From an uncultured archaeon (GTDB lineage: Archaea > Thermoproteota > Nitrososphaeria > Nitrososphaerales > Gagatemarchaeaceae), in assembly GCA_963799775.1 (NCBI GenBank), contig CAWCYD010000003.1:1248001-1312000 (forward strand): a stretch of 64,000 nt of DNA, in the 5' to 3' direction. How positions within the stretch are numbered: the stretch's first letter is position 1; every line of letters starts with the position of its first letter. Shown in pieces: positions 16,126 to 45,900 of the stretch. The position numbers and the translations under genes are program-made. The notes under the pieces are model-generated. The model was not told the origin of the DNA and searched no databases. It saw only the letters and a program-made list of their open reading frames with translations.

Positions 16126-16187
16126 CCTCTCTGTTCTGCCCGAATGTGCGGCCCATCCCTATAAGGGCTGTCCCAGTTCTCGAAGTC

Positions 16188-17056: not shown

Positions 17057-17127
17057 CCTCGTCGCAGGGCAAACCGCCTCGTCAAACAAAAGGGTTTAAC
17101 ATGAGGCACAGGGCTCGACGTGACAAC

Positions 17128-17745
17128 TTGCCTCTTTCGCTCGAGCAGGGCGCCCGGTTGGTCTCGATTGCAAGAAGGGCAATCGATTCGACGGTCGTCG
17201 GAGGGAAGGAGCCTGACGGCGAAGAGTTCGACTCGCACGCCGACTCCGAGTTCCTGAAGGAACTCCGTGGGGCTTTCGTGACTCTGAACACCACGAACGG
17301 CGACCTGAGGGGCTGCATCGGCATCCCATACCCTGTGAAGCCTCTCGGGGAGGCCGTGGTGCACGCGGCAGTCGGCGCAGCGAGGCACGATCCGAGGTTC
17401 CCGAGGGTCGACGCTTCGGAGCTAGACTCTCTGATAGTCGAGGTCAGCGCGCTGACCCGGCCCGAGCCGTTGGAGTGCAAGGCTGACGAGCTTGCGAAGC
17501 ATGTGAGCATCGGTCGAGACGGACTGATCGTCTCCGCGGACGGGACCAGCGGGCTTCTTCTGCCCCAGGTGGCGACCGAGATGGAACTTACTCCCGAGGA
17601 GTTCCTCTCGCTAACGTGCCGGAAGGCGGGGCTGCCCCCCGATGCTTGGATCATCCCCGGCGTCAAGGTCCACAGGTTCCAAGCAGAGGTGTTCACAGAG
17701 TCGACGCCGCGCGGGCTGGTCGGCGAAGCAAAGATTCACGCGTGA
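17128..17745 (+). CDS. amrA: AmmeMemoRadiSam protein A (AMMECR1 domain)
   Basis: GAFVTL, LRGCIG, DPRFP, GLLLPQVA, KAGLP. Confidence 0.92.
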   Translation: MPLSLEQGARLVSIARRAIDSTVVGGKEPDGEEFDSHADSEFLKELRGAFVTLNTTNGDLRGCIGIPYPVKPLGEAVVHAAVGAARHDPRFPRVDASELDSLIVEVSALTRPEPLECKADELAKHVSIGRDGLIVSADGTSGLLLPQVATEMELTPEEFLSLTCRKAGLPPDAWIIPGVKVHRFQAEVFTESTPRGLVGEAKIHA

Positions 17746-22900: not shown

Positions 22901-25093
22901 CTACTCGTTGTCGATGAACTCGGAGGCCTTCGGTGCATCTTCTGGAAGGCCCTTGCGCTTCCGAATCGACTGGACCAGCGGCAGGAGCATGTTCGTCGGA
23001 ACCGCCTGCCAGAGCTTGAAGTAGGTGTTCCAGACCGCCCTCCCCGCCGTCGCTCCTCTCATCTCCTCGCTCAGGTCCATCGTCTCCGCTGCAGGGATCT
23101 CTCCCTCGACTATGGTGAGCGCCTCGCGCTGCTCGATGTTCAGGAGCTTGCCCCTCTTACCACTGATGACGCTCGTAATCGCGCCTATCTGGTCTGAGGG
23201 GCCCTTGACCTCTATTCCCAGGACGGGCTCGAGGAGCGTGGGGTTGCCGAGGAGCATCGCGCCGAGGATGGAACGTCTCGTAGCCGGCATAAGCTGCGCG
23301 TAGGTCCGGTGGGCCGCGTCCTCGTGGGGCACGTAGTGCGTGAGAGTGGCCTTGATCCCCCTGCAGGTTTCGTAAGCGAGGGGGCCGTTCTGCATGACGT
23401 CCTCGAAGCCAGAGCGCATGGTGTCCATTGACTCTTGCAGGAACTGGACTCCCTTCGTCTCCTCGCAGAAGAGGTTGCCCTTGGGGTCGACCTCCACGAC
23501 CGTCCTCGAGGTGTCCGAGTCCCAGCCGTGGTCGCGCAGGAGCTTCACTATCGTCTTCTTGTCGGTGGTGTCGCTCAGCTCCCCCTTCCGGATTAGCTCG
23601 ACGATGTCCGGGGCGAGCGGCTCGACCTTCATGAATATCTTGTTGTGGCGGTTGGGCGACTTGCTCATTATCGGCCCCGCCCCCTGCCTGATGGTCTCTC
23701 GGTAGTTGGTGATGGGCTCCGAGGTGATTATCTCCAGCCCTTGGCGCTGGATCATCGTGGTGGCGATCTCCAGGTGGAGGACGCCCATCCCCGCCATCAG
23801 GGTCTCGCCGCTCTCCTGGTTGATCGTGATGATGAGGTTCGGGTCCTCGATGTTGAGCCTGCGCATCGCCTCGACGAGCTTGGGGAGGTCGCGCGGGTGC
23901 TTCGCCTCGACCGCCTGCGTCACGACCGGCTCGGAGACGTAGTGGATGGACTCGAAGGGCACCACGTCCTTGAGCGTGGATATCGTCTCGCCCGAGCGGA
24001 TGTCGAGACCCAGTATGGCGGGGATGTTGCCCGCCGGGAGCGTGTCGACTATCTCGCGCTGGAAGCCCATGAAAATCTGGACCGACTGGATCTTCCCCTC
24101 GCGCTTCGAGTTGAGGAGATAGACCTCGTCGCCGTTGCTTATCTGGCCCGAGAAGAGCCTGCCCACTCCGACCAGACCCGCGGCCGGGTCCACCACGACG
24201 TTGGTGACCATCATGACCATGGGGCCGTTCTCGTCGCAAGCGAGCAGCGCCTTGCCGACGTCGCTGTCGAGGTTCCCGCCTGACCAGATCTTGGGGATGC
24301 GGTAGGCCTGCGCCACGTGGGGCGGCGGATGGTGCTTGACGACCATGCCGAGGAGCGCCTCGTGGAGCGGGAGCTTCGGGCCGAGGGTCTTGGGGTCGCC
24401 CGTCGTGTACGCCTCGTAGATGTCCTTGAAGCCCATCCCGGTGGCCTTGGCCAGGTCCGAGTTGAAGCCCCACTTGTCCTTGCTCGAGCCGAACGCGACC
24501 ATCGAGTCCTGGATCTTGACCTTCCAGAGCTCCCTGTACTGCGGCTCCGCGTGGGTCTCGACGAGGCGGTTGAAGTCCGCGACGATGTTGAAGAGCCACT
24601 TTTGCATCTGATCGGGGTTTAAACGGAGTTCTTTGATTAAACGGTCGATTTTGTTGATGTATAGGACAGGACGGACCCGTTCTTCGAGCGCCTGGCGGGT
24701 GACAGTCTCCGTTTGCGTCATTATGCCTTCTACGCTGTCAACTACGACGATTGCGCCGTCTACGGCTCGTAATGACCTTGTTACCTTCCCAGTGAAGTCA
24801 ATGTGCCCCGGAGTGTCAATCAGGTTGATAACGTAGGGAGTTCCGTCCTTTTCGTAGTAAAGCGTGACATTCGCGGCCTTGATGGTCATCTGCCGCTGCT
24901 GCTCTAGCTCCATGTAGTCAAGAGCGAGCGCTTGCCCCGCAACCGAGGGAGAGAGCATCCCGCACGCCGCTAGGAGGGAGTCCGCCGTGGTAGTCTTCCC
25001 GTGGTCGACATGGGCGATGATTCCCATGTTCCGCAGCTGCTCGCGGTTGTGGACGATCTTCAGCGCTTCAGAGGTGGACTTGAACTTCGGCAT
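22901..25093 (-). CDS. fusA: archaeal elongation factor EF-2
   Basis: AHVDHGKTT, DTPGHIDF, NKID, KSPNRHNK, HEDAAHR; 730 aa. Confidence 0.98.
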   Translation of the reverse strand: MPKFKSTSEALKIVHNREQLRNMGIIAHVDHGKTTTADSLLAACGMLSPSVAGQALALDYMELEQQRQMTIKAANVTLYYEKDGTPYVINLIDTPGHIDFTGKVTRSLRAVDGAIVVVDSVEGIMTQTETVTRQALEERVRPVLYINKIDRLIKELRLNPDQMQKWLFNIVADFNRLVETHAEPQYRELWKVKIQDSMVAFGSSKDKWGFNSDLAKATGMGFKDIYEAYTTGDPKTLGPKLPLHEALLGMVVKHHPPPHVAQAYRIPKIWSGGNLDSDVGKALLACDENGPMVMMVTNVVVDPAAGLVGVGRLFSGQISNGDEVYLLNSKREGKIQSVQIFMGFQREIVDTLPAGNIPAILGLDIRSGETISTLKDVVPFESIHYVSEPVVTQAVEAKHPRDLPKLVEAMRRLNIEDPNLIITINQESGETLMAGMGVLHLEIATTMIQRQGLEIITSEPITNYRETIRQGAGPIMSKSPNRHNKIFMKVEPLAPDIVELIRKGELSDTTDKKTIVKLLRDHGWDSDTSRTVVEVDPKGNLFCEETKGVQFLQESMDTMRSGFEDVMQNGPLAYETCRGIKATLTHYVPHEDAAHRTYAQLMPATRRSILGAMLLGNPTLLEPVLGIEVKGPSDQIGAITSVISGKRGKLLNIEQREALTIVEGEIPAAETMDLSEEMRGATAGRAVWNTYFKLWQAVPTNMLLPLVQSIRKRKGLPEDAPKASEFIDNE

Positions 25094-26186: not shown

Positions 26187-26457
26187 TAGGATAATGACGA
26201 AGAGTCATCGCGGTATAAAGCTACCGGGGCCGCCTTAAGGTCGCCAATGTCAACCTTGTGTGCCATTTGGGTTAGCATCGGCTCCAGCAGCTCGCCTTGG
26301 TTATGGCTGACACTTCGGAATATAATACTTTTCGAAGATTTCTCATTATAATCATTGTGAAGGGGTAATCCGTTCGACCTGGCGCGTCCCTTAGGCCCCA
26401 TAATTCATGGTTGGGGGCGGCGCTCATAGATACCACTACACCATTTCAATGACTTGG

Positions 26458-26684
26458 ATGGCTCCCTCGCTTACCGAAAGAGACCGTAAAGAGTTGAAAG
26501 AAATCCTCGACAATCCCGCGAGGAGCGCCGAACTCGCTAACAAGACGATTGATGCACGGGTTCTGCAATGACTCGAGTTTCGGAGATACTCAAGAAGGTT
26601 AAGGAACCAATCCTGACTGCAACCTTGCCTTCGAAGAATCCTTTGAAGCAAAGACGTAACGGGGCAGGGGGTCAAACACCTTGA
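26458..26684 (+). CDS. two-ORF cassette X copy 1 (ORF1 26458-26571, ORF2 26568-26684, truncated)
   Basis: MAPSLTERDRKELKEILDNPARSAELANKTIDARVLQ* and MTRVSEILKKVKEPILT..., paralogous to 30497 and 37311 copies. Confidence 0.55.
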
Positions 26685-28811: not shown

Positions 28812-28886
28812 TCATGTCGACAGGTACCTTTCCCCCTTTAGCAGCCTCATCGCCATGATGAAGAGCGCCATGTAGTGTGAGTCCAT
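28812..28886 (-). pseudogene. duplicated 3' end of the NUDIX gene at 30773
   Basis: MDSHYMALFIMAMRLLKGERYLST* vs MDSYYMTLFIMAMRLLKGDRYLSI*. Confidence 0.8.
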
Positions 28887-28956
28887 CCCCTGACGCGAGC
28901 CTCTCTAGACGGACATCGGAAACCTGTATAGCCCTCTGCCGCCCGAGACTATTCCC

Positions 28957-29280
28957 TTGCCGACCTGCCCAAAGTGCGGTAAGTTCATCAGCGAGAGCCA
29001 CTATGAGAGGCACCTCCGGCGCTGCGGCATCGAACGAGATGAAGAGCCTCGGATTACAAGCCAGTCGGTGGCGCGAATGCTCGAAAGCCGCGAGCAACGG
29101 AACGAGCCCGGCCACCCGACCGAGGAGCAACATGCTGGGACCCACGCGGGAACTGACTATCCGCCCGACGAAGAGCCCCGCGGGACGAACTGGACCAAGG
29201 TCGCCGCCTACTTTGTCATATTCCTGCTAATCGGCTCCACCGTGGTCTTCTTCTTGCTCTACTTTCTCTCCGTACTCTGA
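28957..29280 (+). CDS. Y copy 1: Zn-finger (CPKC..H...C) protein with C-terminal TM anchor
   Basis: MPTCPKCGKFISESHYERHLRRC ... NWTKVAAYFVIFLLIGS. Confidence 0.7.
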   Translation: MPTCPKCGKFISESHYERHLRRCGIERDEEPRITSQSVARMLESREQRNEPGHPTEEQHAGTHAGTDYPPDEEPRGTNWTKVAAYFVIFLLIGSTVVFFLLYFLSVL

Positions 29281-29297
29281 GGCGGGGTTCACAGGCG

Positions 29298-29468
29298 ATG
29301 TCCACCTCCCAGACTTTGGAAGAGGAGCCATACGAGTGGGCGTACGACGCCCCCCAGGGCAAGTGGGTCAAGGTCACGGCGAAGAACAGCAACGGGAGGA
29401 AGTGCGGCCGCTGCGGGTGTGCGTGCCCGTGCAACTGCCCCGACTGTCTCCACCATTGCTGCTCGTAG
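29298..29468 (+). CDS. Cys-rich metallothionein-like miniprotein copy 1 (56 aa)
   Basis: MSTSQTLEEEPYEWAYDAPQGKWVKVTAKNSNGRKCGRCGCACPCNCPDCLHHCCS*; below ORF-track cutoff; two paralogs. Confidence 0.8.
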   Translation: MSTSQTLEEEPYEWAYDAPQGKWVKVTAKNSNGRKCGRCGCACPCNCPDCLHHCCS

Positions 29469-29477
29469 GGCGCCTCG

Positions 29478-29664
29478 TCACCTTGAATGGGCGTTGAGGC
29501 AGCGGACCGCCTCGTCGGTGACCAGTATCCGGTCGGCTGTGACCGTCTCCTCGACGGTGAAGGAGACGATCCTCACGAACCGCAGGCCCGCCAGGTCGCG
29601 CGCGGCCACGGCGGTCTGGACTCCTTTCGATGGTGAGCTTGAGCTCGACCTTCTTGTCAGGCAT
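29478..29664 (-). CDS. Z copy 1: 61-aa hypothetical protein (extra A near 29626)
   Basis: MPDKKVELKLTIEGVQTAVAARDLAGLRFVRIVSFTVEETVTADRILVTDEAVRCLNAHSR*, paralog of 36965..37150. Confidence 0.7.
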
Positions 29665-29876
29665 CAAGGCGCGCTTGCTCGGGATACGCCCTAAAGGCCG
29701 GGGCGGACAAGAATTCTTTACCAGGGACTCGGGGCCCCGGACTTCGGGGAAGGTTATCAGAAGGCGTAATCCGCCGCCCAACATTTTTTAGGTCGGAAAG
29801 GTTGCTGCGCGAGAAGAGGGTTTGTCCTCATGCTGAGGAAGAGTCGCTCCCGTGCAGAATGGCCTGGTGGTCCTCG

Positions 29877-30302
29877 ATGAGCGAATCCGATGAAAATGAG
29901 AGGTACTATTCGGCGCTCGGCCTTCCTCCAGACGCCACCTTCGAACAGGTGAAAGCGAGGTTCAGGGAGCTCAACGACGCGTATCTCAAGATACTCGAGC
30001 TGTCGCGGGCGACAAAGGCCGGCACACCCCTTCAGGCCTCCTCGACCGATGAGGAAACAGGCCAACACGCACCGCAACTCGATGCAAATCCAAAGCAGCG
30101 GTTCTCGCCTGCTCCAGAGACGCACACCGAGCCGATATGGAAGCTCAAGGAAAGATTCGCGAAAGGAGGCATTCAGAAAGCCGAGTTCGAGAAACGGGCG
30201 AAAGACCGCTGGAACTATCTCAAGAGCAGACCCTTCAGCGAGCTGACAGACGCCGAATACGAAGAGAGGCTAAAGGGGTTTGACGGGCTGAAGTTTCTAT
30301 GA
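29877..30302 (+). CDS. J-domain-like (no HPD) + SHOCT-like protein copy 1
   Basis: YYSALGLPPDATFEQVKARFRELNDAYLKIL; PIWKLKERFAKGGIQKAEFE. Confidence 0.75.
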   Translation: MSESDENERYYSALGLPPDATFEQVKARFRELNDAYLKILELSRATKAGTPLQASSTDEETGQHAPQLDANPKQRFSPAPETHTEPIWKLKERFAKGGIQKAEFEKRAKDRWNYLKSRPFSELTDAEYEERLKGFDGLKFL

Positions 30303-30496
30303 CGATAGACGCCAAATTTCCGCAACTCCCATGGGGGATGTTTCCTTCTCCCCGGGTTTGTCGTCCGCCCTGCTCGAGACAGGTCTCGAGTCTTATGGGA
30401 AAGGTGGGGAGCCTATATGTTAACCGAGTCTAGCCGCGGAAGCCGGATAGGCGTTTAAATATTGCAAACAGATATTTTGTCGATTAGGTGTGCGAG

Positions 30497-30753
30497 ATGC
30501 TCACAGAAGAAGAGCGAAAGAGAGTCAGAAAAATCCTCGACGACCCGGTGAAGAGCGAGGAGCATGCGAATAGGGCGATAGACGCATGGATCCTCCAGAG
30601 AAAGATCTCCCGGAAATCCTCGAAAAGCTCGAGAAAACCCTGATGAAGCGCATTCCTCTCGCATATGAGAAAAGTCCCGACGACCTCTTCGATGAGCTAT
30701 CGGCGCTGGACTTAGTCTGGTCGTTAAAGGAGAGAATCACGCACAAGGCGTAG
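30497..30753 (+). CDS. two-ORF cassette X copy 2 (ORF1 30497-30643, ORF2 30586-30753)
   Basis: MLTEEERKRVRKILDDPVKSEEHANRAIDAWILQRKISRKSSKSSRKP* and MDPPEKDLPEILEKLEKTLMKRIPLAYEKSPDDLFDELSALDLVWSLKERITHKA*; TTTAAATA upstream. Confidence 0.7.
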
Positions 30754-30772
30754 GCCCCTATGCGAGGGCGTT

Positions 30773-31423
30773 TCAGATTGAGAGGTACCTGTCCCCCTTT
30801 AGCAGCCTCATCGCCATGATGAAGAGCGTCATGTAGTACGAGTCCATCTTTGGGACGAAGCTCCCCTTCGTGACCTCCAGCTTCGCCTCCGTCGCCTTCC
30901 CCGCCCTGTCCCACTCGACCCCCGCCGCCTTGATCTTCTTCGCCCGCCCCGAGAAGAGCCTCAGGCCGTCCCATATCCTCACCTCCACGAGCGCCCGGAC
31001 CTCGAGCGGGTCTACCCTATAGGCCCGGAGCGGCCGGTCGTCCCTGATGAAGAAGACCTCGGCTATCTCCCGCTTCGAGAGCCCGTCGAAGCCCGACACG
31101 TCGACCCGGCTCCCCAGGGGGACGAGCTTCTCCACGCCAGGGGCGATGCCAATCTCCTCCTTTATCTCCCGCGCCACGTCCTCGAGCTGCTCCCCGGCCT
31201 TGTAGTGCCCGCCGACCGTGCTGTCGAGTAGGCCCGCGAAGGTGGGCTTGTCCTCACTCCTCACCTGGAAGATCACCGCCCCGCCCTTCCTTTTCGTTAC
31301 TATCCAGCAGTGGAGGTTGAGGTGCCAGAGGCCCTTCCTGTGGGCCTCGTTGCGCGTGACCACCCCGATCTTCTTCAGGGACTCGTCGTAGACGTCCACC
31401 GGCTCGTCGTCGGGCGATTCCAA
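30773..31423 (-). CDS. NUDIX hydrolase (IDI-1-like)
   Basis: AHRKGLWH, GLLDSTVGGHYKAGE...REIKEEIGI. Confidence 0.88.
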   Translation of the reverse strand: MESPDDEPVDVYDESLKKIGVVTRNEAHRKGLWHLNLHCWIVTKRKGGAVIFQVRSEDKPTFAGLLDSTVGGHYKAGEQLEDVAREIKEEIGIAPGVEKLVPLGSRVDVSGFDGLSKREIAEVFFIRDDRPLRAYRVDPLEVRALVEVRIWDGLRLFSGRAKKIKAAGVEWDRAGKATEAKLEVTKGSFVPKMDSYYMTLFIMAMRLLKGDRYLSI

Positions 31424-31543
31424 TACCGTCTCGCCGAGGTGCTGGCCGCTGATAAACGTGAACTCGACTCTTGCACTGTGAGGTGGCCTGTTGGAGAGGA
31501 CTTTGGAAACACGTATAGGCCTCTGGCCGACCACGACCATTAT

Positions 31544-31750
31544 TTGTCGACCTGTCCCAGGCCCCATTCCTTCCATGCCACCCTGGCGACCCCGCGGACA
31601 GAAAGTCCGGAAAAGGGGGACGACTACGGCCCTCCCAGCCCGGAGCAGGGCGGGATAAACTGGACGAAGGTCGCCGCGTTATTCGTCCTGTTCCTCCTCA
31701 TCGGCTCCTTGGTGATCTTCTTCGTCCTCTACGCCCTCTCGCTGATGTGA
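31544..31750 (+). CDS. Y copy 2: membrane-anchored peptide (Zn finger lost)
   Basis: MSTCPRP...NWTKVAALFVLFLLIGSLVIFFVLYALSLM*; upstream region similar to that of 28957. Confidence 0.6.
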   Translation: MSTCPRPHSFHATLATPRTESPEKGDDYGPPSPEQGGINWTKVAALFVLFLLIGSLVIFFVLYALSLM

Positions 31751-31986
31751 GCGTCAGGGACCCGCTACGGCCAGCGAGCTCCTCGCCCTTTGTGGGCGCC
31801 TCCCAACCCTGAATAATGGGTGGGATAATGGATGGGAGAGATGCGCCCCGCGCGGCTCGTTCCTTTCCTGATGCCTGCGGCCTCGCTCGTCGGCGAATCC
31901 CTGATGTCGCGACAGCTGGACACCCAATCTGGACGTCGGGCTCGCCCTGCCGGTCGCCTTTGGCCTGGCCTTCTGGGGAATCTTGG

Positions 31987-32415
31987 ATGAGCGATACGGA
32001 CGATAGGGAGAGCTACTACGCGACCTTGGGCCTCCCTCCGGATGCCACCTTTGAACAGGTGAAGTCACGCTTCAGGGAGCTCAATGAAGCGTACCTCAAG
32101 ATACTCGAGCTGTCACGAAGCAGCGCAAAGGCCCGTGCGCCCGGTCGACCCGCTCAAGCCGATAACGGCGCTGTTCGGCCCAGTCCGCATCCAGACACAA
32201 ATCCAAAGCAAGGGGCCTCGCCTCCGCAAGAGACGCGCACGGACCCGATAGCCAAGATCAAGGCAAGGCTCGCAAAGGGAGAGATCCAGAAAGCTCAGTT
32301 TGAGAGGCTGGCAAAGGAACGCTACGACTATCTCAAGAACAAACCCTTCAGCGAGTTGACGGAGTCCGAGTTTGAGGAGAGGCTCCATGGGTTTGAGGGG
32401 TTGAAGTTCCTATGA
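31987..32415 (+). CDS. J-domain-like (no HPD) + SHOCT-like protein copy 2
   Basis: YYATLGLPPDATFEQVKSRFRELNEAYLKIL; PIAKIKARLAKGEIQKAQFE. Confidence 0.75.
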   Translation: MSDTDDRESYYATLGLPPDATFEQVKSRFRELNEAYLKILELSRSSAKARAPGRPAQADNGAVRPSPHPDTNPKQGASPPQETRTDPIAKIKARLAKGEIQKAQFERLAKERYDYLKNKPFSELTESEFEERLHGFEGLKFL

Positions 32416-32452
32416 CCTCGGTCGCGCAGCCCGGCGAAGCGTCGGAGCCGGC

Positions 32453-32599
32453 ATGGAGCTCTACGAATGGCTCTATGACAAGGTGGAGAACAAGTGGGTC
32501 AAGATAACTGCGAAGAACATCCAAGGGAGGAGATGCGGCCGCTGTGGGTGCCCTTGCCCCTGCGCGTGCCCGGATTGTCTGCATCAATACTGCTCATAG
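32453..32599 (+). CDS. Cys-rich metallothionein-like miniprotein copy 2
   Basis: MELYEWLYDKVENKWVKITAKNIQGRRCGRCGCPCPCACPDCLHQYCS*; true start may be the ATG at 32412 overlapping the J-like stop (1-nt shift). Confidence 0.78.
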   Translation: MELYEWLYDKVENKWVKITAKNIQGRRCGRCGCPCPCACPDCLHQYCS

Positions 32600-32878
32600 A
32601 ATTCTGTTCTCCCTCTCTAGATTCCTGCTTGCCGGCTCGGTAGTCATCTTATCATCCTCTGCGCGCCTTCCCTAATGTGACGCGCTTGGGCTTCAGAGCA
32701 GTGGCGCTTGGGTGCTGTCTAATCTTCGTTTGGTTTGGCGTGATATGCATTCGGTTCCAAACGGCAACTCGACAGAGCCATTTCTTGGTAAGCCTAAAAT
32801 CAATCCTAGCTGAGAGACGCATCCCTCGCACAAGCGAGAAAGGCACTCGAACGGTAAGATTGTCGTGAGAGTATGAAT

Positions 32879-33112
32879 CTAGGTAGAATGTGCTACTCCT
32901 GCCCTACCCTTGGCTTTTTGACGCAACCTGACATAGAACAGTGTGAAAAACGCCCAACCAAAGGCGAGCGCTGGGACCGCGCGCTCGAGGCTTAGCGAGC
33001 CGAGAACAAAACCGGGTAAACTAACCCCTAAGTAGAGGAGCATCATCAAAACAATGAACTTTACGTATCCTTTAGACGCTATCCAATCCCTGAATCCCGA
33101 GAGCGGGTCCAA
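32879..33112 (-). CDS. small 2-TM membrane protein (candidate immunity protein)
   Basis: 77 aa, starts 6 nt after the halocin-like gene, same low GC. Confidence 0.6.
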   Translation of the reverse strand: MDPLSGFRDWIASKGYVKFIVLMMLLYLGVSLPGFVLGSLSLERAVPALAFGWAFFTLFYVRLRQKAKGRAGVAHST

Positions 33113-33118
33113 GAGATA

Positions 33119-33965
33119 TCACCCATATCCTAATGCTTCACAGGCAGCCGCGCAAGCTGCATCAATGACATCGTATTCCTCTATAACGAAGACTATAACC
33201 ACGGCTGCTAGAATACAGACACCAAATGTGGAGATGATGCAGGCCACGAATACCACAGCTATGGTCACGATCACCACAATCTCGCACACAAGGTCACAAT
33301 CCTGATCCATATCCACCGAAATCGTGCCGCTTACGTTGAGATTCGCAGTTGAACGGGGCAGCATGGCTCCCATTTTTAGAAAGGAGGCCGCCATCAGCGC
33401 GTAGTACGAGCCGAGCTGTCTGATTGTAGAGTTTTGTGAGGCAATGTCTTGGGCAGCAACTATGCCAAGCCCGGCCGCGTTTCCTAGGAGCTGGTTGGTG
33501 AGGGTGGACGTGTAGTTCAAGACGAAGACGTCTCCCAGCTTGAGGTCTCTACCTTTGGGAATGATATTCGCTCCGAGGACTGCCAAGTATCGACTGCTGC
33601 TTGCATTCCGCGCGAGGCTCTCCAGAATCGTGACCGTGTAGGTATTCGCGACCTCAGTGTACTGGAGATAGACAATGCTCGTTCCTTTGGTAGTGCCGAC
33701 CGATGCCATCAGCGTCGATTCTCCTCGACTCAGCGTTGTATTTGAAAAACCTTCCAAGCTTGCCTTTCCGGAAGGGATGCTCGGCATAGTCTGCGGCATA
33801 GAGAAGGGCTTTTCTGAGTTCAAATGAAATGGCGAGTTCATTTCGTACACGTTGCGGATTTGAATAGGCACTTGATTAGTTGCGCCGGAAGCGGGTGTTA
33901 CCGGGTAAGATAAAGACAACAAACAAACCGGCCAGAAAGATTCCGCCTAACTCGCGTATCCTCAA
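33119..33965 (-). CDS. secreted precursor with C-terminal halocin C8-like Cys-rich hydrophobic domain (frameshift near 33921)
   Basis: Signal peptide MRIRELGGIFLAGLF/LLSLSYPVTPASGA; C-terminus DCDLVCEIVVIVTIAVVFVACIISTFGVCILAAVVIVFVIEEYDVIDAACAAACEALGYG. Confidence 0.6.
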
Positions 33966-34088
33966 CGCTTGGGAAAAAGGCGTGAGATAACGATATATGC
34001 GTTCCGTCAAGAATTTCGGTGATTCTTTTGGTTTTCTCCCCAATTTCCGGCTGACCTATGCCATAACCTATGGGACACGCTCCCTAGC

Positions 34089-34288
34089 ATGCTCTACGTC
34101 GAGGACAGGTTCGCGAACTATGTCCCGTTCCTTGAGCTTGTCGCCCTCAGGTGACGAGCAAGGGAGAAGAGGCTACCGCGAAGATGCAAGGCTATGTCCT
34201 GAATCTACAGGATATGCTGGGGAAGACCTACGATGCAAGAGACGTCACGTATGACCTCAAGGTCGACCTCGAAGAAATAATCTGGTGA
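34089..34288 (+). pseudogene. gene fragment
   Basis: Coding-like MLYVEDRFANYVPFLELVALR / VTSKGEEATAKMQGYVLNLQDMLGKTYDARDVTYDLKVDLEEIIW* with a frameshift. Confidence 0.35.
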
Positions 34289-34310
34289 GGGCTGAGCTAG
34301 CGCGAGACCG

Positions 34311-34388
34311 CGCCGTTGGCTTCGTAATCTTCCTGCTAATCGGCACGTTTGTGACCTCTTCGTGCTCTACGGACTTTCGCGGGTGTAG
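34311..34388 (+). pseudogene. Y copy 3 remnant (TM anchor only)
   Basis: AVGFVIFLLIGTFV..FVLYGLSRV* matches the Y C-terminus. Confidence 0.6.
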
Positions 34389-34392
34389 GAGC

Positions 34393-35361
34393 CTAGGGAC
34401 TCGCGAGGGTCAGCGACGTCACGCTCGTCGTTTCGCCGAGGGTGGTACCCTGCTCGCTAATCTGCGTCTGCTCGTATAGGATCATCGTTAGGCCCGTCCC
34501 CTGGACCGTCCCTATGCCCTCGACGAGGTTGCTCAGCGTGGTCCCGCAGTAGGTCAAGGGAAGGGACTTCAGCGTGTAGTAGGTCATCTTCACCTGCGTC
34601 GGCCCGAGGGAGACGGTCGTCGAGTTGAGGACCGCGACGTTCGGGTCAGACACGACCCCGCTCGTGTAGGTGCTCGCGTGGAACAGAATCAAGAAGGACG
34701 AGACGTCGGCCTGACCCATGGCCTCTGCCGAGGCTCCGGTGGAGTTGCCCAGGACCGGCGAGCTCACGCTCGTGGCCGTCCCGTTGGGGGCGAACATGTC
34801 GACTGTGGAGACGTTGAACCCGGTGATGCTCGTCGTGAAGTTCACCTCGTAGTACTCGAGGGAGCCTATCGTGGGCCGTCCGATAATCTGGTAGGACGAG
34901 CTCGTCGCCAAGCCCATAGTCCCGACGATGTTAGATGTCACGGTCATCTGGGAGAAATTCCCGAAGAGCTCGGCCAAAGTCGCGTTTCCGGGGCCCTCGT
35001 TGTAGAGGCCGGTCAGGTTGCCCACCAAAGCGCTGACGGTGGAGTTGAGCTGGGCCATGCTTTCCGTGCTGTTGAACAGGCAGGGAATGGAGGTGGTCGA
35101 AGACGAGCTCGTGCTGGTCGTAATCGGGATCGCGCTGCTCGGCGAGCTCGTCGAGCTCGTTGAGGTAGCGGTGGTCGACATCGAAGAGGTGGAAATGGCC
35201 TCGGTGCTAGAGGAAGACGTGCTTCCGCTGGAAGAAGGCGCCTGTGATAGCGAGAGGACGGCCGCCGCTCCGACGGCAGAGACCCCGATTACCGCTACGA
35301 CGACAAGGGCCAAGACCCTTGGGACGCCTGCGCGTCTGGCCAAACGGGAAGAGTCCGCCAA
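34393..35361 (-). CDS. Ser/Thr-rich membrane-anchored extracellular protein
   Basis: N-terminal TM, S/T linker, many NxS/T sequons. Confidence 0.75.
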   Translation of the reverse strand: MADSSRLARRAGVPRVLALVVVAVIGVSAVGAAAVLSLSQAPSSSGSTSSSSTEAISTSSMSTTATSTSSTSSPSSAIPITTSTSSSSTTSIPCLFNSTESMAQLNSTVSALVGNLTGLYNEGPGNATLAELFGNFSQMTVTSNIVGTMGLATSSSYQIIGRPTIGSLEYYEVNFTTSITGFNVSTVDMFAPNGTATSVSSPVLGNSTGASAEAMGQADVSSFLILFHASTYTSGVVSDPNVAVLNSTTVSLGPTQVKMTYYTLKSLPLTYCGTTLSNLVEGIGTVQGTGLTMILYEQTQISEQGTTLGETTSVTSLTLASP

Positions 35362-35644
35362 GTGCCGGAGTTCAACAGGCGCCGAGCGAACTTATGGGTT
35401 GTGAAGGCCGAATCAATATTCCAGCGGCCAGTCGATGTCTCCAAGTCCAGAGAATGGGAAGGAGCCCAGGGAGAAGATTGTTCCCATATCATAATATCCA
35501 AAACAGACACTTTTGGTCACCTTGCTGAGAGGCCGACCTCCGCATATCCCCATTTTGCCTTTGCCGCAGCGCTAGCGGCAGTCCTCCTAGTCCGAGCGAG
35601 GCAAGTCCCTCGAGGCCGCTAACCGCGAATCATAGACGAGCTCG

Positions 35645-35773
35645 TTAAGACTTGTCGTTCGCCCCCCGTCTTCTACCCCTGACTGCCCGGTCTACCATCT
35701 TCTCGAAAGCCGCGTCGTCATTGAGAAGCCTGTCCAGCTTCTGTAACTCCTTTTTTGTCAGTGGCTTGCTCAA
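35645..35773 (-). CDS. 42-aa distant homolog of cassette X ORF1
   Basis: MSKPLTKKELQKLDRLLNDDAAFEKMVDRAVRGRRRGANDKS*; TATAAAG upstream. Confidence 0.45.
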   Translation of the reverse strand: MSKPLTKKELQKLDRLLNDDAAFEKMVDRAVRGRRRGANDKS

Positions 35774-35889
35774 GGACTTTGCCTCTGGGTCGTCGAAATT
35801 GGAGGTGAGGCCGTCTAATGACTGCCGATTTGATTGCAGTCTTTATACCGAGCTCCGCATCTCGAATGGATTGCAGTTGCGAACCTTCG

Positions 35890-36144
35890 CTAGATCGGCC
35901 CCTTGTGCGCCTTGAGGACCACAGAGCTTGCGGTGCTCCTGATTCCTTTGACCTTCATGATCTTGTGTTCGAGGAGCTCCCTGAAGTCCTCGAGGGTGTC
36001 CACAGAGAATAGCGTCAGGAGGTCGAACTCTCCGGTGACCTCGTAAAGGTGCACAAGGTCTTCGAGCTTGGATAGGGCTACGACTACGTCATCCATCTCA
36101 GGCTTCTCCACAAAGATTTCTACGAAGACCAGGAGACGGGGCAA
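35890..36144 (-). CDS. Lrp/AsnC ligand-binding (RAM) domain protein
   Basis: LYEVTGEFDLL...KIMKVKGIRSTASSVVLK. Confidence 0.88.
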   Translation of the reverse strand: MPRLLVFVEIFVEKPEMDDVVVALSKLEDLVHLYEVTGEFDLLTLFSVDTLEDFRELLEHKIMKVKGIRSTASSVVLKAHKGPI

Positions 36145-36291
36145 CCCTAAACGTCATGCATCGGGGGTCACTTGGTGATATAACTTCCGCGGGGGAGAAG
36201 TACACATGGCGCCACCCTCCAGGCCGTGGCCTGGTGGTCTCATGCCTCTTGTGACGAGGACGCTCGAAGATAGATGGAGGGATCTCTAGAG

Positions 36292-36477
36292 GTGTCAGCC
36301 TCCCAGCCTCCCGAGGGGTCTGAGAAGAACGAGGAGCCATACGAATGGGCCTACGACCAGGCTCAGAACAAGTGGGTCAAGATAACGGCGAAGAACAGCC
36401 AGGGCAGACGGTGTGGTCGTTGCGGGTGTAGTTGTCCCTGCACGTGCGCGGATTGCCTCTTCCAGTGCTGCTCGTAA
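36292..36477 (+). CDS. Cys-rich metallothionein-like miniprotein copy 3
   Basis: ..EEPYEWAYDQAQNKWVKITAKNSQGRRCGRCGCSCPCTCADCLFQCCS*. Confidence 0.8.
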   Translation: MSASQPPEGSEKNEEPYEWAYDQAQNKWVKITAKNSQGRRCGRCGCSCPCTCADCLFQCCS

Positions 36478-36526
36478 CTCCGTTGCGCCCATTTCGCGAC
36501 CCAGGAAGGGCTCCACGCTGGACGCT

Positions 36527-36838
36527 TTAGCTGGTGAGAGTGAGCTCTATCTTTACGTCCTCGGGAATCGAAAGCTTCGTTATCTGCCTCATGGCCCTGT
36601 CGTTCGGCTCCACATAGATGAGCCTTCTGTGAATCCTGAGTTGCCAGTGGTCGAACGTGTGGGTACCCTCGCCCGTTGGGGCTTTCCTAGTGGTAATCTT
36701 CAGCGTCTTGGTTGGCAGAGGCTGCGGGCCCACGCTCTTGACGCCCGCCTTGTCCGCGATATCCTTAATCTCCCAGGCAAGCCTGCCCAGCTCATTAAGG
36801 TTGGAGCTGGTCAGCTTGATTCTCGCATACTGTGGCAT
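36527..36838 (-). CDS. rpsJ: 30S ribosomal protein S10 (uS10)
   Basis: ARIKLTS, GPQPLPTK.LKITTRKAPTGEG, WQLRIHRRLI. Confidence 0.95.
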   Translation of the reverse strand: MPQYARIKLTSSNLNELGRLAWEIKDIADKAGVKSVGPQPLPTKTLKITTRKAPTGEGTHTFDHWQLRIHRRLIYVEPNDRAMRQITKLSIPEDVKIELTLTS

Positions 36839-36964
36839 TGTCTTTGGGACTCGCGTCTAGGCTTGCTACTTAGGCCTTTGCCAAATCGCCCGCGAGATCC
36901 TGCAACGAAGGAATACGGACGCCCCATGCCTCGATCGGAGCATCTCCTGGCTAAGGCCGTTGGT

Positions 36965-37150
36965 TCATCTTGAAGGAGGGTTCAGGCAACGCACTTCCTT
37001 GCTGGTGACAAGCACCCGGTCGGTCGTGACCGTCTCTGTCACTGTGAAGGACACCATCCTGACGAAGCGCAACCCCGAGATGTCCCGCTCCGCGAAAGCG
37101 ACCTGCACCTTCTCGACGGTGAGCTTGAGCTCCACCATCTTGTCCCGCAT
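36965..37150 (-). CDS. Z copy 2: 61-aa hypothetical protein
   Basis: MRDKMVELKLTVEKVQVAFAERDISGLRFVRMVSFTVTETVTTDRVLVTSKEVRCLNPPSR*. Confidence 0.72.
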   Translation of the reverse strand: MRDKMVELKLTVEKVQVAFAERDISGLRFVRMVSFTVTETVTTDRVLVTSKEVRCLNPPSR

Positions 37151-37310
37151 CAACCCTCGAATGCCCCAATAACGGCCTAATGGCGGCCACAGACAAGAAA
37201 TCTATACCAGAGGCTCAGGCCCCGCGTCAGCCTGCGGCCAAGGACCCAGGTTGCGAGAGCTATGCCGCCATGGCCGCTTAAATTCAACGACGCACTGTCT
37301 GGCCATTTGG

Positions 37311-37585
37311 ATGACCTCCTCGCTTACCGAAAGAGACCGGAAAGAGTTGGAAGAGATTCTCGCCGACCCCGTGAAGAGGGCAGAGCTAGCCAACAGGGCG
37401 ATTGATGCGTGGGTTCTTCAGGGGCTTCCAAAGTCGAGACGATCCTCAAAGAACTCGAAGAAACGCTCCTGACGCGCATTCCTCTCGCCTACAAGAGAAG
37501 CCCGGAGCGATTCTTCAGAGAACTCTCGACGCTTGAGATTGTGTTAGGGATTAAAGAGAAATTGAGGCACAGTTCGCCGCAGTGA
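37311..37585 (+). CDS. two-ORF cassette X copy 3 (ORF1 37311-37472, ORF2 37409-37585)
   Basis: MTSSLTERDRKELEEILADPVKRAELANRAIDAWVLQGLPKSRRSSKNSKKRS* and MGSSGASKVETILKELEETLLTRIPLAYKRSPERFFRELSTLEIVLGIKEKLRHSSPQ*. Confidence 0.7.
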
Positions 37586-37735
37586 GCAGGTCGCCCTGCC
37601 CACAAACGGAGCGAGCAGACAATGCTTATGGCAGGCTCGAAACTTCCCGCGCAGACGAAAGACTTGCAGCGCTCTAGCGTCGTCCCAAAGAAGAAGAAGC
37701 CTCCGCACTAGGCATTACGAGGAACCGACCCAGCC

Positions 37736-42250: not shown

Positions 42251-42841
42251 TTGACCGTCGATGAAAGAAGGATGACCGAGAGAGTCATCTCGTCCAAGGT
42301 GATCTACAAGGGAAGGGTCGTCAAGCTCCGAAAGGATGTCGTCAAGTTGCCGGACGGGAGGCGGGGCACGCGAGAGATAATGGAGCACCGGGGGTCTGTC
42401 GCGATAGTCCCGATTCTCGACGACGGGAGCATCGTGCTCATCAGGCAGTTCCGGCTGGCGACAGGTGGCGTGATCTGGGAGGTCCCCGCGGGCGGGATGG
42501 AGCGCGGGGAAGACCCCGAGACGTCTGCGAGGAGGGAGCTCGAGGAGGAGACCGGGTACCGCGCCGGGAAGATGGAGCTGCTCTTCGAGGCCTACCTTGC
42601 GCCTGGCTACAGCATGGAGCTCATGCACTTCTTCCTGGCCAGCTCGTTGAGGAAAGGAGAACAGCGGACCGATGAGGAAGAGGTCATCGAAGTCCGACGT
42701 TTGAAGCCAGCCGCCGTCGTCCGCATGGTAAAGTCGAACCAGATAAGGGACGCCAAGAGCATCGCTGCGCTCGCATATCTGCAAGCCTCGGGGAAGCTGG
42801 GCGCATCCGGCGGCGGAAGGCCAGCGACCCGCCGATCGTAG
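42251..42841 (+). CDS. ADP-ribose pyrophosphatase-like NUDIX hydrolase
   Basis: WEVPAGGMERGEDPETSARRELEEETGY. Confidence 0.92.
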   Translation: MTVDERRMTERVISSKVIYKGRVVKLRKDVVKLPDGRRGTREIMEHRGSVAIVPILDDGSIVLIRQFRLATGGVIWEVPAGGMERGEDPETSARRELEEETGYRAGKMELLFEAYLAPGYSMELMHFFLASSLRKGEQRTDEEEVIEVRRLKPAAVVRMVKSNQIRDAKSIAALAYLQASGKLGASGGGRPATRRS

Positions 42842-42971: not shown

Positions 42972-45900
42972 ATGATTGGAAAGTTGGAAAGTCTGCGCCT
43001 GCCCGGTCCGTCGACCCGGCGAAGGAAGCGGGGTGCCGGAAGGGCGATCCTAGGCCTCTCGTTCATCGCCATCCTCCTCGTCTCCTCGATTGGAAACGCC
43101 GCGTTTTCGGTCTTGAAAGCGGCCCCGCAGACCCAAGGTCGGGAGCCTCTTGCGACCGCGGCGGTCCCAAGGATCATCAACACGCAGGGCCTCCACGGCC
43201 CCGTGAACCCGTTCATCGACATCTACTCTGGATATTCGCAAGAGCCGGCGCCGATGGGGATCGCCGACTACGGAATCGGGCCGAGCGGGGCATATCAATA
43301 CTCGACCAACTCGTCGTTGGGCACAGTCGACCTCGTGACCCTCTCCGCCAAGAACTCCACGGGCTACCCCTGGATCTCGATCCAACTGAACGTGAATCTG
43401 CAGTTCACCAACGGAGGAAGAACATCGGTCTACTGGGTGCAGGACGTGGCCTACCTTGACACCTTCAACAACTCGGTCTTCTTCATCGACAACGTATGGA
43501 ACTCGTCGACCCGCGGAGCGGGGATGAGAGGCGGCATCCAGGGCAACGGGGTCGTCGCCCGCTCCGGGATCCAGACATACTACTATGACGTCGCCGATGC
43601 CTCGCTCTCTGGCAACGGCGTCGAGCTCGTCTACCCGTCCCTCGTGCAGCTCCGAGTAAACTCGACTGTCAACGCAGCCAAGCAGCCCATTGTGACCTTC
43701 GAGTACAACGATGGCTTTGGCTGGGAGGAGTACGACTCGGTCGATTTCGCGTTCGTCCGCCAGCTGACGTCGATGAGCGGGTTCGTGGTCAACGGGTTCA
43801 GCTACAGCCCTGTCAACTACTACGACTCCGAGCTCATCCTGGGCGGACCTGGAGGCGGCGCGTCGACGGCGGACCTGGGTTCGGACGTCAGCCTTCAGCT
43901 GGAATACTGGAACGGCCACAACTACCAAGTGATCACAAACGCCTACGACTTTGGAAGCGACACTGGAGAGACGATCTCGAATGTGCTCGCTCAGAAGGGG
44001 TACAACCAGGTCAACGGAGGCGTGGAGGCCCAGATCCAGAGCGCAGCGGGTTCAGTCGGGAAGATCTGGGACCAATCAGCCGTCAGCATACTGGACCTGA
44101 AGACCTCGATCGCCTCGGGGTCCTCGCCGTCACCAACTCGTCCAGCGCGGCAGGGACGTCCGGGCAATATCCGTTCACGAACGGCGAGGTCACCGTCACT
44201 CTGCAGCCCGGGTCTATGAGCTCCAGGTCTACTCGGGCACGACGATAACCACCGAGGGAAAGTACTCCCTGACGGCGGGTCAGCTCCTGCAGCTCCGGAC
44301 CCCTCTTGGAATCATCCCCTTCACCTTGAGCTTCTCGGTGGTCGGAGGGGGCTCCGGCTACTCTCCCCCGACTCTCACGTACGTCAGCAGCGGCGCGACA
44401 TTCATGTCCCCTCTTGGGAGCGCGGCGACGGTCTATCAGCTGGACTCGGGGACCACGTGGTCGGTCTCCTCGCAGCTTCCAGGTTCGACGGGGACACAGA
44501 GGTGGATGACGGCGCAAGCCACCACGGGGGCCGCGTCGTCAGGCCTTTCCGAGGTCATGACCTACTACCACCAGTTCCTCGAGACCGGCTCATACTCGGT
44601 CAGTGGAGGAGGCACCGGATACTCTGCGCCCTCCGTCTCGGTTACGCAGTTCGGACAAAAGGCATCCCTCCTCTTGGGGACCACGACGTCCTCCTTCTGG
44701 CTGGACAGCGGGAGCCAGTATTCGGCGGCCGCCACTCTGCCCGGGTCCAGCGGCGTTGAGCGATGGTTCGCATCTGTGCCTACAGGGACGGTCACCGGCC
44801 CTGGCTCGCTCCTGTTCAACTATGCCAACCAATTCTATCTCGGAGTCTCTGGAGGCGCTGCGCTTTCCCAGTGGTACGGCGTCGGGGCCCTGGCCAAGGT
44901 GAGCCAGCCGATCGCTTACGGCCGGTCGTCGGGCACGGGACAGAGGGTGTCATCCTATTCGGTGGACGGTGGGCCTCAGACGACGGTCCCACCGGGCCAG
45001 GGGAACTTCACAGTGTCGGTCACGATGAACGCCCCCCACACAATCACCTTCGTCTCGGTCGCGCAGTATCAAGTGGCCCTCGACAGCGTCTCCTCCCAGG
45101 GGCTCGCTTCGATCACACCGCCCACGATAAGCGGAGACCCCTACTGGTATGACTCCGGCTCGAAGGTGAGCGTCTCGATAAACGGCACTTGGGGCAGGTC
45201 TGGGGGGCAAGGCACTCGACTCGTATCCTACTCGATCAATGGAGGGACACAGGTCCAGGTGCAGTCGAAGGGGCCGGTCTCAGTCCTCTCCGTCCCAGCA
45301 ATCTCGGCGCCAGAGTCGATAACGGCCAGGTCGATCACCCAGTATCTTCTTGACACCAGCGGCGGCTCCGTCGCCTCGATCACCCCCACCGCCCTGACCT
45401 CCGACCCAGGGTGGTACGACGTCGGGACGACGGTGAACGTGCTCTACAACTATTCCTGGAACGAGACGTCAGGACAGGGCAGGCTCAACGCAGTGTCGTA
45501 CGCGATAGACTCGGCGCCTCCGACGCCCCTTCCAAGGCAGGGAGGCGGCACCTTCAGCGTGGGATTGTCGATGGACGCGCCCCATCAGATCGCAGTGGGG
45601 CCGGTGAGGCAGTACCTGCTCGCCTATTCCGGAGGCTTCGGAGTGACCCTGTTCCCCCAATCCCAGACGGGGGACGGCTTCTACGACGCAAGTTCGAGCG
45701 TCACGTTGACGAGCGACTACTCGACGGACATCGTCCCCGGGCAGGAGAGACAGGTGCTGACCGGATACACGCTCGACTCTACCGACGTGACGATAGGTCC
45801 CAACACGACGGGCACTTTCACCACACCTCCGATCGTCATGGACTCATACCACACCCTAACCTTCCATTCTGGGATCCAAGACCTCGTGAAGTTCTCCTTC

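Follow-up and report, generated by a model that had tools for sequence, protein, structure and literature searches.

The question raised by the locus considered here is what function may be performed by three small cysteine-rich proteins, designated CRP1, CRP2 and CRP3, which are encoded within 7 kb of the genome of an uncultured soil archaeon of the family Gagatemarchaeaceae (order Nitrososphaerales). The stretch of DNA analysed, referred to below as the window, comprises 64,000 nucleotides (assembly GCA_963799775.1, contig CAWCYD010000003.1, positions 1,248,001 to 1,312,000), and the coordinates given are those of the window unless another contig or locus is named. The favoured answer, to which we assign a probability of about 0.45, is that CRP is a cytosolic metal-thiolate cluster protein with putative metal binding, metallothionein-like by composition and not by homology. 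The claim is that CRP would work like a metallothionein, not that it is a member of a known metallothionein family. This reading is favoured because of the odd and variable numbers of Cys residues, the apparent autonomy of the Cys module and the stand-alone, accessory, copy-variable character of the gene.

Three cysteine-rich proteins and their coding sequences

A preliminary description, made from the letters of the DNA, had reported three paralogous Cys-rich open reading frames (ORFs). All three are present on the plus strand, with 9, 8 and 9 Cys residues counted within the final 21 residues of CRP1, CRP2 and CRP3, respectively:

29298-29468, plus strand: CRP1, 56 amino acids (aa), 9 Cys; acidic N-terminal tail MSTSQTLEEEP, hairpin and module of nine Cys
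32453-32599, plus strand: CRP2, 48 aa, 8 Cys; penultimate Cys replaced by Tyr, N-terminal tail nearly absent
36292-36477 (61 aa, GTG start) or 36274-36477 (67 aa, ATG start), plus strand: CRP3, 9 Cys

The predicted masses of the three proteins are 5.6-7.4 kDa, and Cys makes up 15% of the residues overall and 43% of the last 21. Their alignment contains 32 invariant columns, including YEW, YD, KWVK, TAKN and GR as well as the tail CGRCGC.CPC.C.DCL..(C/Y)CS; both the segment YEW(A/L)YD-x4-KWVK(I/V)TAKNxxGR and the tail CGRCGCxCPCxCxDCLxx(C/Y)CS are seen in it as they had been described. The genome to which the window belongs (2.47 Mb, 3 contigs, 81.67% complete) contains exactly three copies, the fourth match (E = 1.3) being noise. 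A six-frame scan of the same genome for CxCxCxC pointed to 14 places, of which three are the CRPs and the other 11 are dissimilar to them. CRP3 is the nearest of the three copies to the orthologues of the congeneric genomes G008 and G013 (82-84% identity).

The reality of the genes was assessed with 16 CRP sequences extracted from the genus, of which 15 were used (L007 was dropped, its DNA being identical to that of L006). The 47 codons compared run from the second residue ahead of YEW to the final one, and at codon positions 1, 2 and 3 the 15 distinct sequences have 18, 18 and 41 variable columns of 47. For the 105 pairs of genus sequences the median proportions of nonsynonymous (pN) and synonymous (pS) differences are 0.129 and 0.675, and the median ratio of the corresponding rates, dN/dS, is 0.106 on the 64 of 105 pairs with computable dS. 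The variation by codon position and the dN/dS statistics indicate that selection acts on the CRP frame, and the three ORFs are genuine protein-coding genes under purifying selection in the plus frame. The Cys codons are mixed, as had been noticed earlier, with TGC used 91 times and TGT 43 times across the 15 sequences. Among CRP1-3 themselves pN is 0.12-0.19 and pS is 0.60-0.74; at silent sites the paralogues equal the species of the genus in age.

Two other explanations of the ORFs were considered and discarded. The first, that the ORFs are non-coding or due to chance, is ruled out by the codon statistics. The second, that coding takes place on the other strand or in a different frame, was weighed because the overlapping ORFs there are "conserved" as well, but the wobble variation sits on the third position of the plus frame.

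The CRP genes of the genus start with ATG, or with TTG or GTG at one aligned position. In CRP3, the GTG at 36292 is in frame and gives the N-terminus MSASQ, which aligns with MSTSQ of CRP1 and the orthologues, and GGAGGG is located 10 nt upstream of it. The ATG at 36274 is also open as a start, so either codon may be the one used. GGAG precedes the ATG of CRP2 by 5 nt. The candidate signals of CRP3, proposed from the sequence only, are:

36270-36281, plus strand: ATAGAT (TATA-like) followed by GGAGGG (Shine-Dalgarno-like), upstream of GTG 36292

In 6 of the 15 genus loci (L009, L013-L017), the element ATAGACTTA(ATGC) is found 35-46 nt upstream of the CRP start. The element ATAGACTTA occurs once per 3-kb locus, and the surrounding upstream regions are otherwise unrelated. 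It is probably a promoter (of the TATA-box type) or an operator of a free-standing CRP gene. Among the sequencing runs for positions 28900-37600 of the window no RNA run was listed; one soil DNA run was, with a 0.14 share of words.

Family and distribution

A profile of the three window sequences detected orthologues in 13 of the 22 congeneric genomes other than the window's own; the 14 genomes searched from the family's remaining genera and the 24 from other families of the order yielded none. A profile of 24 close CRP sequences was then searched against 1.84 billion cluster representatives and gave 30 matches at E <= 1e-3. Twenty of these are small proteins of 59-151 aa covering nearly the entire profile, and ten are long repeat proteins matched by the hairpin only; among five of the latter that were tested, three are Kelch and two are WWE proteins. 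A second search with a mixed alignment gave 35 family proteins. The organism names attached to the family members are "Nitrososphaerales archaeon" and "Nitrososphaeraceae archaeon" only. Profile searches of the kind that the preliminary description had proposed, made with a larger set of close sequences, led to a wider, unnamed family, and such names as the sources give are archaeal.

In a whole-genome scan of the order, the family was detected in 20 of 301 genomes, the window's own genome counted: in 9 of 13 genomes of the own genus, 4 of 47 of the sister genus and single genomes of six other families, one of these six cases, a match at E = 6e-4 within a frame of 305 aa, being doubtful. In a sample of 400 further genomes from across the phylum, 59 of them from three other families of the same order, no member was found. 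The copy number is three here, two in G162 and one elsewhere, and no copy was found in 9 of 22 congeners. Patchy presence and varying copy number of this sort are a usual trait of accessory stress genes, and amplification is known for metallothionein genes. CRPs belong to an undescribed small-protein family which, in the genomes searched, is confined to Nitrososphaerales.

The family also includes relatives lacking the hairpin. These proteins of about 43 aa with 11 Cys (e.g., ...CxKCGCxCPCSCxCCRRGCCS...) were found in four genomes of the genus (L044, L048, L049 and L050 in G011, G020, G006 and G013, respectively), and similar bare-module proteins occur in two other families (L057, L059). Three genomes contain the bare-module and long forms together; the bare-module form was not found in the window's genome. 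Since the Cys module is also found alone, it behaves as an autonomous unit.

A search for the amoA gene (PF12942) in 7 genomes of the host family and in the window's own genome found no copy, and the gene was present in all searched genomes of four other families (8/8, 7/7, 7/7 and 7/7). Ammonia oxidation by the host is thus improbable. The CRP family also occurs in two amoA-bearing families.

Several remote or lineage-specific cases are recorded here as side observations. A search of metagenome contigs with a further alignment (A5) gave 2 loci, and with the same alignment no confirmed relative was present among 121 pattern matches in genome contigs or 353 in viral contigs. Of 6 weak partial matches to the profile of 24 close sequences in viral contigs, five span only 17 residues and one is a 46-aa ORF of doubtful kinship. 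On one viral contig (L070, 7992-8132, plus strand), a 46-aa ORF ends with CDGCGCVCPCECPDC..C.C and overlaps an ORF of 164 aa read in a different frame; it is either a relative or a chance match. A low-G+C metagenome contig (L064, 521-733, plus strand) encodes a member of the distant, Lys-rich clade of the family among many short ORFs and a 561-aa ORF with no Pfam match. The two family members of G162 (L053) are convergent, at 9023-9205 (plus strand) and 10905-11087 (minus strand), 1.7 kb apart, and flank four small ORFs with no family match; this is another lineage-specific duplication.

Genomic neighbourhood

Pfam scans were carried out around 16 CRP loci, 8 distant ones and 8 from the genus. 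Around the distant loci the scan covered 81 ORFs out of 84 called up to 4.5 kb away on either side, the three dropped ones overlapping the CRP gene; for the genus loci, the nearest 50 of 95 called ORFs were scanned. In all-against-all clustering of the ORFs of the 8 genus loci and the window, the CRP gene forms the sole cluster common to all. The isolated neighbours found in the 16 loci are cyclase-TPR proteins (4 loci), NosD-like proteins (2) and, in one locus each, YbjQ, a non-heavy-metal P-type ATPase, a NUDIX protein and an Rce1-like CPBP protease (in G013). Because the neighbours differ in nearly every genome, the CRP gene is regarded as standing alone. No SmtB/ArsR-type repressor adjoins it in the window or in the 16 loci.

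These surroundings bear directly on the alternative offered by the preliminary description, in which CRP would be a precursor of a ribosomally synthesised and post-translationally modified peptide (RiPP), with the N-terminal part as a leader recognised by a maturase and the Cys tail as a cross-linked core, as in peptides of the ranthipeptide/SCIFF type. SCIFF and ranthipeptide precursors are likewise of about 45-60 aa, with a conserved N-terminal part and a Cys-rich C-terminus, and the small size of CRPs, their occurrence in several copies within 7 kb and their Cys-rich C-terminus would suit such a role. To our knowledge, however, these precursors are always encoded beside a radical SAM/SPASM maturase. 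Neither radical SAM/SPASM enzymes nor YcaO, LanB/C/M or MNIO/DUF692 proteins were found among the scanned ORFs (about 2-4.5 kb) of the 16 loci, and the 81 and 50 ORFs include no maturase-type enzyme. The window does contain a radical SAM gene (14317-16125), but it is 13 kb off and is part of an AMMECR1-Memo-radical SAM trio; the claimed lack of an adjacent maturase holds for the 16 loci and for 13 kb in the window, and the homologous neighbourhoods, in which radical SAM/SPASM genes were to be looked for, showed none. The CPBP protease adjoining CRP in G013 could be taken as favouring a processed peptide, but it is present in 1 of 16 loci, and the neighbourhoods are not conserved. In addition, the supposed core is the most conserved part of the protein, not the most variable. 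With no maturase in the 16 loci and such conservation of the core, the precursor reading is disfavoured and becomes the least probable of those considered here.

Architecture and predicted structure

A family alignment of 53 sequences reveals a three-part layout, consisting of an acidic N-terminal tail, an aromatic beta-hairpin (Y/F)E(W/Y)..D....K(I/V)T and a Cys module preceded by NxxGR. The tail, made up of the N-terminal 3-22 residues, is acidic and variable, with many Ser, Thr, Glu and Pro residues; variability is highest at the extreme N-terminus and conservation is highest in the Cys-rich C-terminus. One Glu (that of YEW) and seven Cys are invariant, and the columns K30, T32, N35, G38, R39, G45, C46, P49 and C59 are conserved in at least 90% of the sequences. 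The Cys module has a length of exactly 20 residues in 52 of 53 sequences and the spacing CxxCxCxCxCxCxxCxxxCC in 30 of 53, the remainder having richer variants. It contains 9 Cys in 31 sequences, 11 in 14, 10 in 7 and 8 in one. The alignment supports the view that the conserved function of CRP would reside in nine thiols at fixed spacing. Odd and variable numbers of Cys fit thiolate ligands better than they fit fixed disulfide pairs or a zinc finger with 4n Cys.

The CRP sequences were read by eye, with no predictor, and neither a signal peptide nor an export motif nor a transmembrane (TM) segment was visible; the earlier statement that a signal peptide is absent is borne out to this extent. 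The lack of a visible signal peptide and of a membrane segment makes a cytosolic location of the protein probable. The same observations speak against a peptide of the disulfide-rich, knottin-like kind, such as a toxin or an antimicrobial. The high Cys density, the small size, the lineage-specific expansion and the confident prediction of a compact fold would be expected of such a peptide, but there is no visible export signal, the N-terminus is acidic, 45 of 53 sequences have an odd number of Cys (9 or 11) and no conserved immunity or transport gene lies nearby in the 16 loci. A knottin-like role is considered very improbable.

The structure was predicted with AlphaFold2. With the 24 close sequences, the mean predicted local distance difference test (pLDDT) score was 57.4 and the hairpin alone was ordered; with the 53-sequence alignment, the score was 76.7, with strands at 17-22 and 27-32. 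The means of successive ten-residue blocks are 51, 73, 89, 85, 85, 80 and 63, and the hairpin and the Cys module have values of 80-89. The aromatic beta-hairpin of the N-terminal part, which had been suggested earlier, is thus predicted by AlphaFold2, and the Cys module is predicted as part of a defined compact domain.

The hairpin (Y/W)EW..D...(N)KW.K matches Kelch repeats in three and WWE repeats in two of the five long proteins tested, and weak Foldseek rows to the WWE domain of HUWE1 (E about 7) were obtained. However, only one hairpin is shared, and CRP has neither a propeller blade nor a WWE half-barrel. It seems that the hairpin is probably a generic aromatic one.

An ordered predicted fold is relevant to the main rival of the metal-thiolate reading, a structural zinc-cluster (zinc-finger-like) miniprotein, in which the metal would hold the fold and the protein would bind nucleic acid or another protein as a regulator or adaptor. 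Zinc-finger micro-proteins of this kind have been described in haloarchaea. The adaptor stays alive as an explanation because of the conserved basic and aromatic surface and the defined fold predicted by AlphaFold2. The hairpin followed by a GRxCxxCG knuckle has the layout of a zinc-ribbon half-site, and the residues K30, T32, N35, G38 and R39, preceding the first Cys and at least 90% conserved, suggest a specific surface. CRP3 and the orthologue in G017 are located near an S10 paralogue, which would also suit an adaptor. On the other hand, 9-11 Cys in 20 residues exceed the need of a single zinc finger, the module exists without the hairpin and the basic stretch, and the lack of a conserved partner gene together with the patchy distribution is unlike a core regulatory factor. 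Such an adaptor is considered rather unlikely.

Searches against known families and folds

A Pfam scan of CRP1-3 at E <= 1 gave only DUF4227 (E = 0.06, 13.7 bits against a cut-off of 27). Pfam zinc-ribbon families were not matched by CRPs, which have one CxxC knuckle after the hairpin, the remainder being a CxC array. NCBIfam at best matched GSU3128, a (seleno)protein family, at 13.3 bits (cut-off 110; E = 0.069). In the search of a sequence profile against the PDB, the best matches were the C1 domain of Unc-13 (E = 0.38) and ribosomal protein eL34 (E = 0.88). Both matched segments are zinc-binding, which, though not significant, leans towards the zinc-cluster adaptor.

The model with a pLDDT of 76.7 was compared with known folds. 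The best match in the PDB by Foldseek had E = 3.0; with VIA-align, none of 48,161 chains reached Z >= 2; and the best match in BFVD had E = 1.6. In the ESM Atlas, the best score was 0.76, for a viral cluster, and fell under the threshold for a lead. No confident match to an already described family, which would have contradicted the proposed novelty, was obtained in Pfam, NCBIfam, the PDB sequences and three fold libraries. The idea of a new archaeal family has therefore stood so far: there is no match in Pfam, NCBIfam or PDB sequences, and the names given by the sources are all archaeal. The CRP family is new to the databases searched.

Two of the weak matches could point to an iron-sulfur or redox-active thiol protein, that is, a small electron carrier, redox sensor or thiol buffer. 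Dense Cys in a small cytosolic protein would agree with this, as would the NCBIfam match to GSU3128 (E = 0.069) and a very weak PDB sequence match to a 4Fe-4S binding protein (E = 9.5). However, these matches are far below significance, no conserved genes for iron-sulfur assembly or redox partners are located nearby in the 16 loci, and we know of no ferredoxin or high-potential iron-sulfur protein motif consisting of CxCxCxC with CPC spacing. A function of this type seems improbable.

Putative metal-thiolate cluster and comparison with known systems

According to the metal-thiolate reading, the nine thiols would together enclose a single metal-thiolate cluster. Its chemical precedent would be either a Cu(I) cluster or the M(II)3Cys9 type known from the beta-domain of mammalian metallothionein, and the hairpin would pack onto the cluster as a cap. 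The role of the protein may then be buffering, storing or handing over Zn, Cu or Cd. Among the operational features by which metallothioneins are recognised, CRPs have a mass below 10 kDa and a high content of Cys in CxC, CxxC and CC arrays.

A number of observations weigh against this reading. Few or no aromatic residues are expected of a metallothionein, and the hairpin has conserved Y/F, W and W/Y; an aromatic residue or His lies inside the Cys module in 36 of 53 sequences. The non-Cys residues E, K, T, N, G, R, G and P are at least 90% conserved, and the classical metallothioneins known to us have neither conserved non-Cys residues nor aromatic or His residues. CRPs match none of the Pfam metallothionein families, the bacterial one included, at E <= 1. 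No metal-resistance gene, metal transporter or metalloregulator recurs beside CRP in the 16 loci. Finally, the confident prediction of a metal-free fold, like the run of basic (K/R-rich) residues surrounding the first CxxC, would suit a structural zinc domain equally well.

Comparison with known systems places CRPs near several of them in chemistry and apart from all in sequence. The bacterial metallothioneins of the SmtA/BmtA type (which we take to be Pfam PF02069) are cytosolic proteins of about 55 aa with 9 Cys, encoded by accessory genes, with a hairpin-containing fold and a single cluster (Zn4Cys9His2 in SmtA). CRPs are similar to them in the small size, nine Cys, accessory gene and small, predicted beta-hairpin-containing fold, but have no sequence match, another Cys spacing, no His ligands and no fold match among PDB chains. 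The vertebrate beta-domain (M(II)3Cys9) and fungal Cu-metallothioneins give a precedent for a cluster held by nine thiolates, and like them CRPs have nine Cys in about 20-30 residues as CxC, CxxC and CC; unlike them, CRPs are unrelated in sequence, have a conserved aromatic hairpin and conserved non-Cys residues, and are predicted by AlphaFold2 to be ordered with no metal. MymT, the mycobacterial Cu(I) metallothionein of 53 aa, is likewise a small lineage-restricted prokaryotic Cys-rich protein outside the classical families, but no similarity to it was detectable, and the 1.84 billion representatives yielded only the CRP family and the hairpin-only repeat proteins.

Cytosolic metal buffering in archaea is poorly understood, and metallothioneins are poorly documented there. 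Csp proteins are four-helix bundles of about 120 aa, to which CRPs (48-67 aa, a hairpin and a Cys module) are unrelated. In the available part of PMC7785015, the Cys-rich copper store named for Nitrososphaera viennensis, a member of the same order, is a cytosolic Csp protein (18 Cys, 15.3%), and only Csp-type stores are named for Nitrososphaerales. Thermococcus gammatolerans encodes no metallothionein route according to an excerpt of PMC3407056. In the literature searched, the phrase "archaeal metallothionein" was not found, and the works mentioning both metallothionein and Thaumarchaeota contain neither term in the title or abstract.

If CRP binds metal as the metal-thiolate reading suggests, it would represent an independently evolved metallothionein architecture, a hairpin with a rigid Cys9 module, and could serve as a marker for metal adaptation in soil Nitrososphaerales, including copper-dependent ammonia oxidisers. 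If it is a structural zinc miniprotein instead, it would represent a new fold-level family of archaeal micro-proteins. A bolder proposal is put forward only tentatively, as something possible and somewhat short of even odds: CRPs may be the first metallothionein family native to Archaea, with a hairpin-capped single Cys9 cluster that arose within Nitrososphaerales, exists in hairpin and bare 43-aa forms, and became triplicated in a soil lineage without ammonia oxidation, in adaptation to stress from metals or to their scarcity.

Duplicated cassettes and other features of the window

The three CRP copies lie in a diverged segmental duplication with a DNA identity of 61-89%. In copy 1, a remnant of a NUDIX gene is followed by a gene for a zinc-finger and transmembrane (ZnF-TM) protein, CRP1, a small minus-strand ORF, a J-domain-like/SHOCT-like gene and the pair h1/h2. 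Copy 2 consists of a NUDIX gene, a TM paralogue, a J/SHOCT-like gene and CRP2. Copy 3 consists of CRP3, an S10 paralogue and a small ORF, both on the minus strand, and h1/h2. The components are:

28812-28887: remnant of the NUDIX 3'-end, 76 nt, 89% identical to the NUDIX gene 30773-31576
28957-29280, plus strand: ZnF-TM protein, 107 aa, with a CxxC...HxxxxC finger at the N-terminus and a TM helix at the C-terminus, 17 nt upstream of CRP1
29478-29609, minus strand: small conserved ORF, convergent with CRP1; N-terminal part in another frame of 29377-29784; paralogue of 36965-37153
29802-30302, plus strand: J-domain-like/SHOCT-like protein of cassette 1, 166 aa, with Pfam matches below cut-offs; 60% identical to 31816-32415
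30488-30753, plus strand: h1/h2, two short overlapping ORFs, repeated at 37251-37585; h1 also at 26404-26568
30773-31576, minus strand: NUDIX hydrolase gene between cassettes 1 and 2
31310-31750, plus strand: TM paralogue ORF of cassette 2, its C-terminal 44 residues (TM helix) paralogous to 28957-29280
31816-32415, plus strand: paralogue of 29802-30302, 199 aa, directly upstream of CRP2
36527-36838, minus strand: S10 paralogue, convergent with CRP3 (PF00338, E = 3.7e-23)
36965-37153, minus strand: small ORF, 62 aa, intact paralogue of 29478-29609, with no Pfam match
37251-37585, plus strand: h1/h2 paralogous pair near CRP3

The ORF 29478-29609 is possibly frameshifted or a pseudogene. The context of copy 1 was found in G013 and G006 (L023, L024), where the ZnF-TM gene is also directly upstream of CRP, and in G017 (L020) an S10 gene is located 2 kb from the CRP gene, which matches the nearness of CRP3 to S10. 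A tree built on 72 columns unites the 20 genus sequences in one clade (SH-aLRT 98), within which the three window copies are not grouped together; the inner forks are weakly supported, and the tree is too short for the order of duplications. The scattered positions of the window copies fit both old paralogy with differential loss and exchange within the genus, as far as the sequences suggest.

A second S10 gene is present on contig C2 (123822-124127), with 83% protein identity to the S10 paralogue of the window. NUDIX genes or their remnants accompany CRP copies in the window (30773-31576, 28812-28887 and 42251-42838) and in G007 (L018, 10115-10633). WWE domains are ADP-ribose binders, and the CRP hairpin matches WWE repeats in two of the five long matches tested; the pairing of NUDIX and WWE is possibly a coincidence.

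The region is flanked by an EF-2 gene (22904-25093, minus strand) and a gene of a thermopsin-family protease (42972-44216, plus strand). The part at 25-36 kb, from EF-2 to S10, is filled with short lineage-specific ORFs, and the G+C content dips to 0.53 at 32-34 kb. The radical SAM ORF of the window (14317-16125, minus strand, 603 aa) carries an intein splicing domain and a DUF559 domain. It is adjoined by the genes of Memo (16191-17072, minus strand) and AMMECR1 (17101-17742, plus strand), with which it makes up the trio at 14317-17742.

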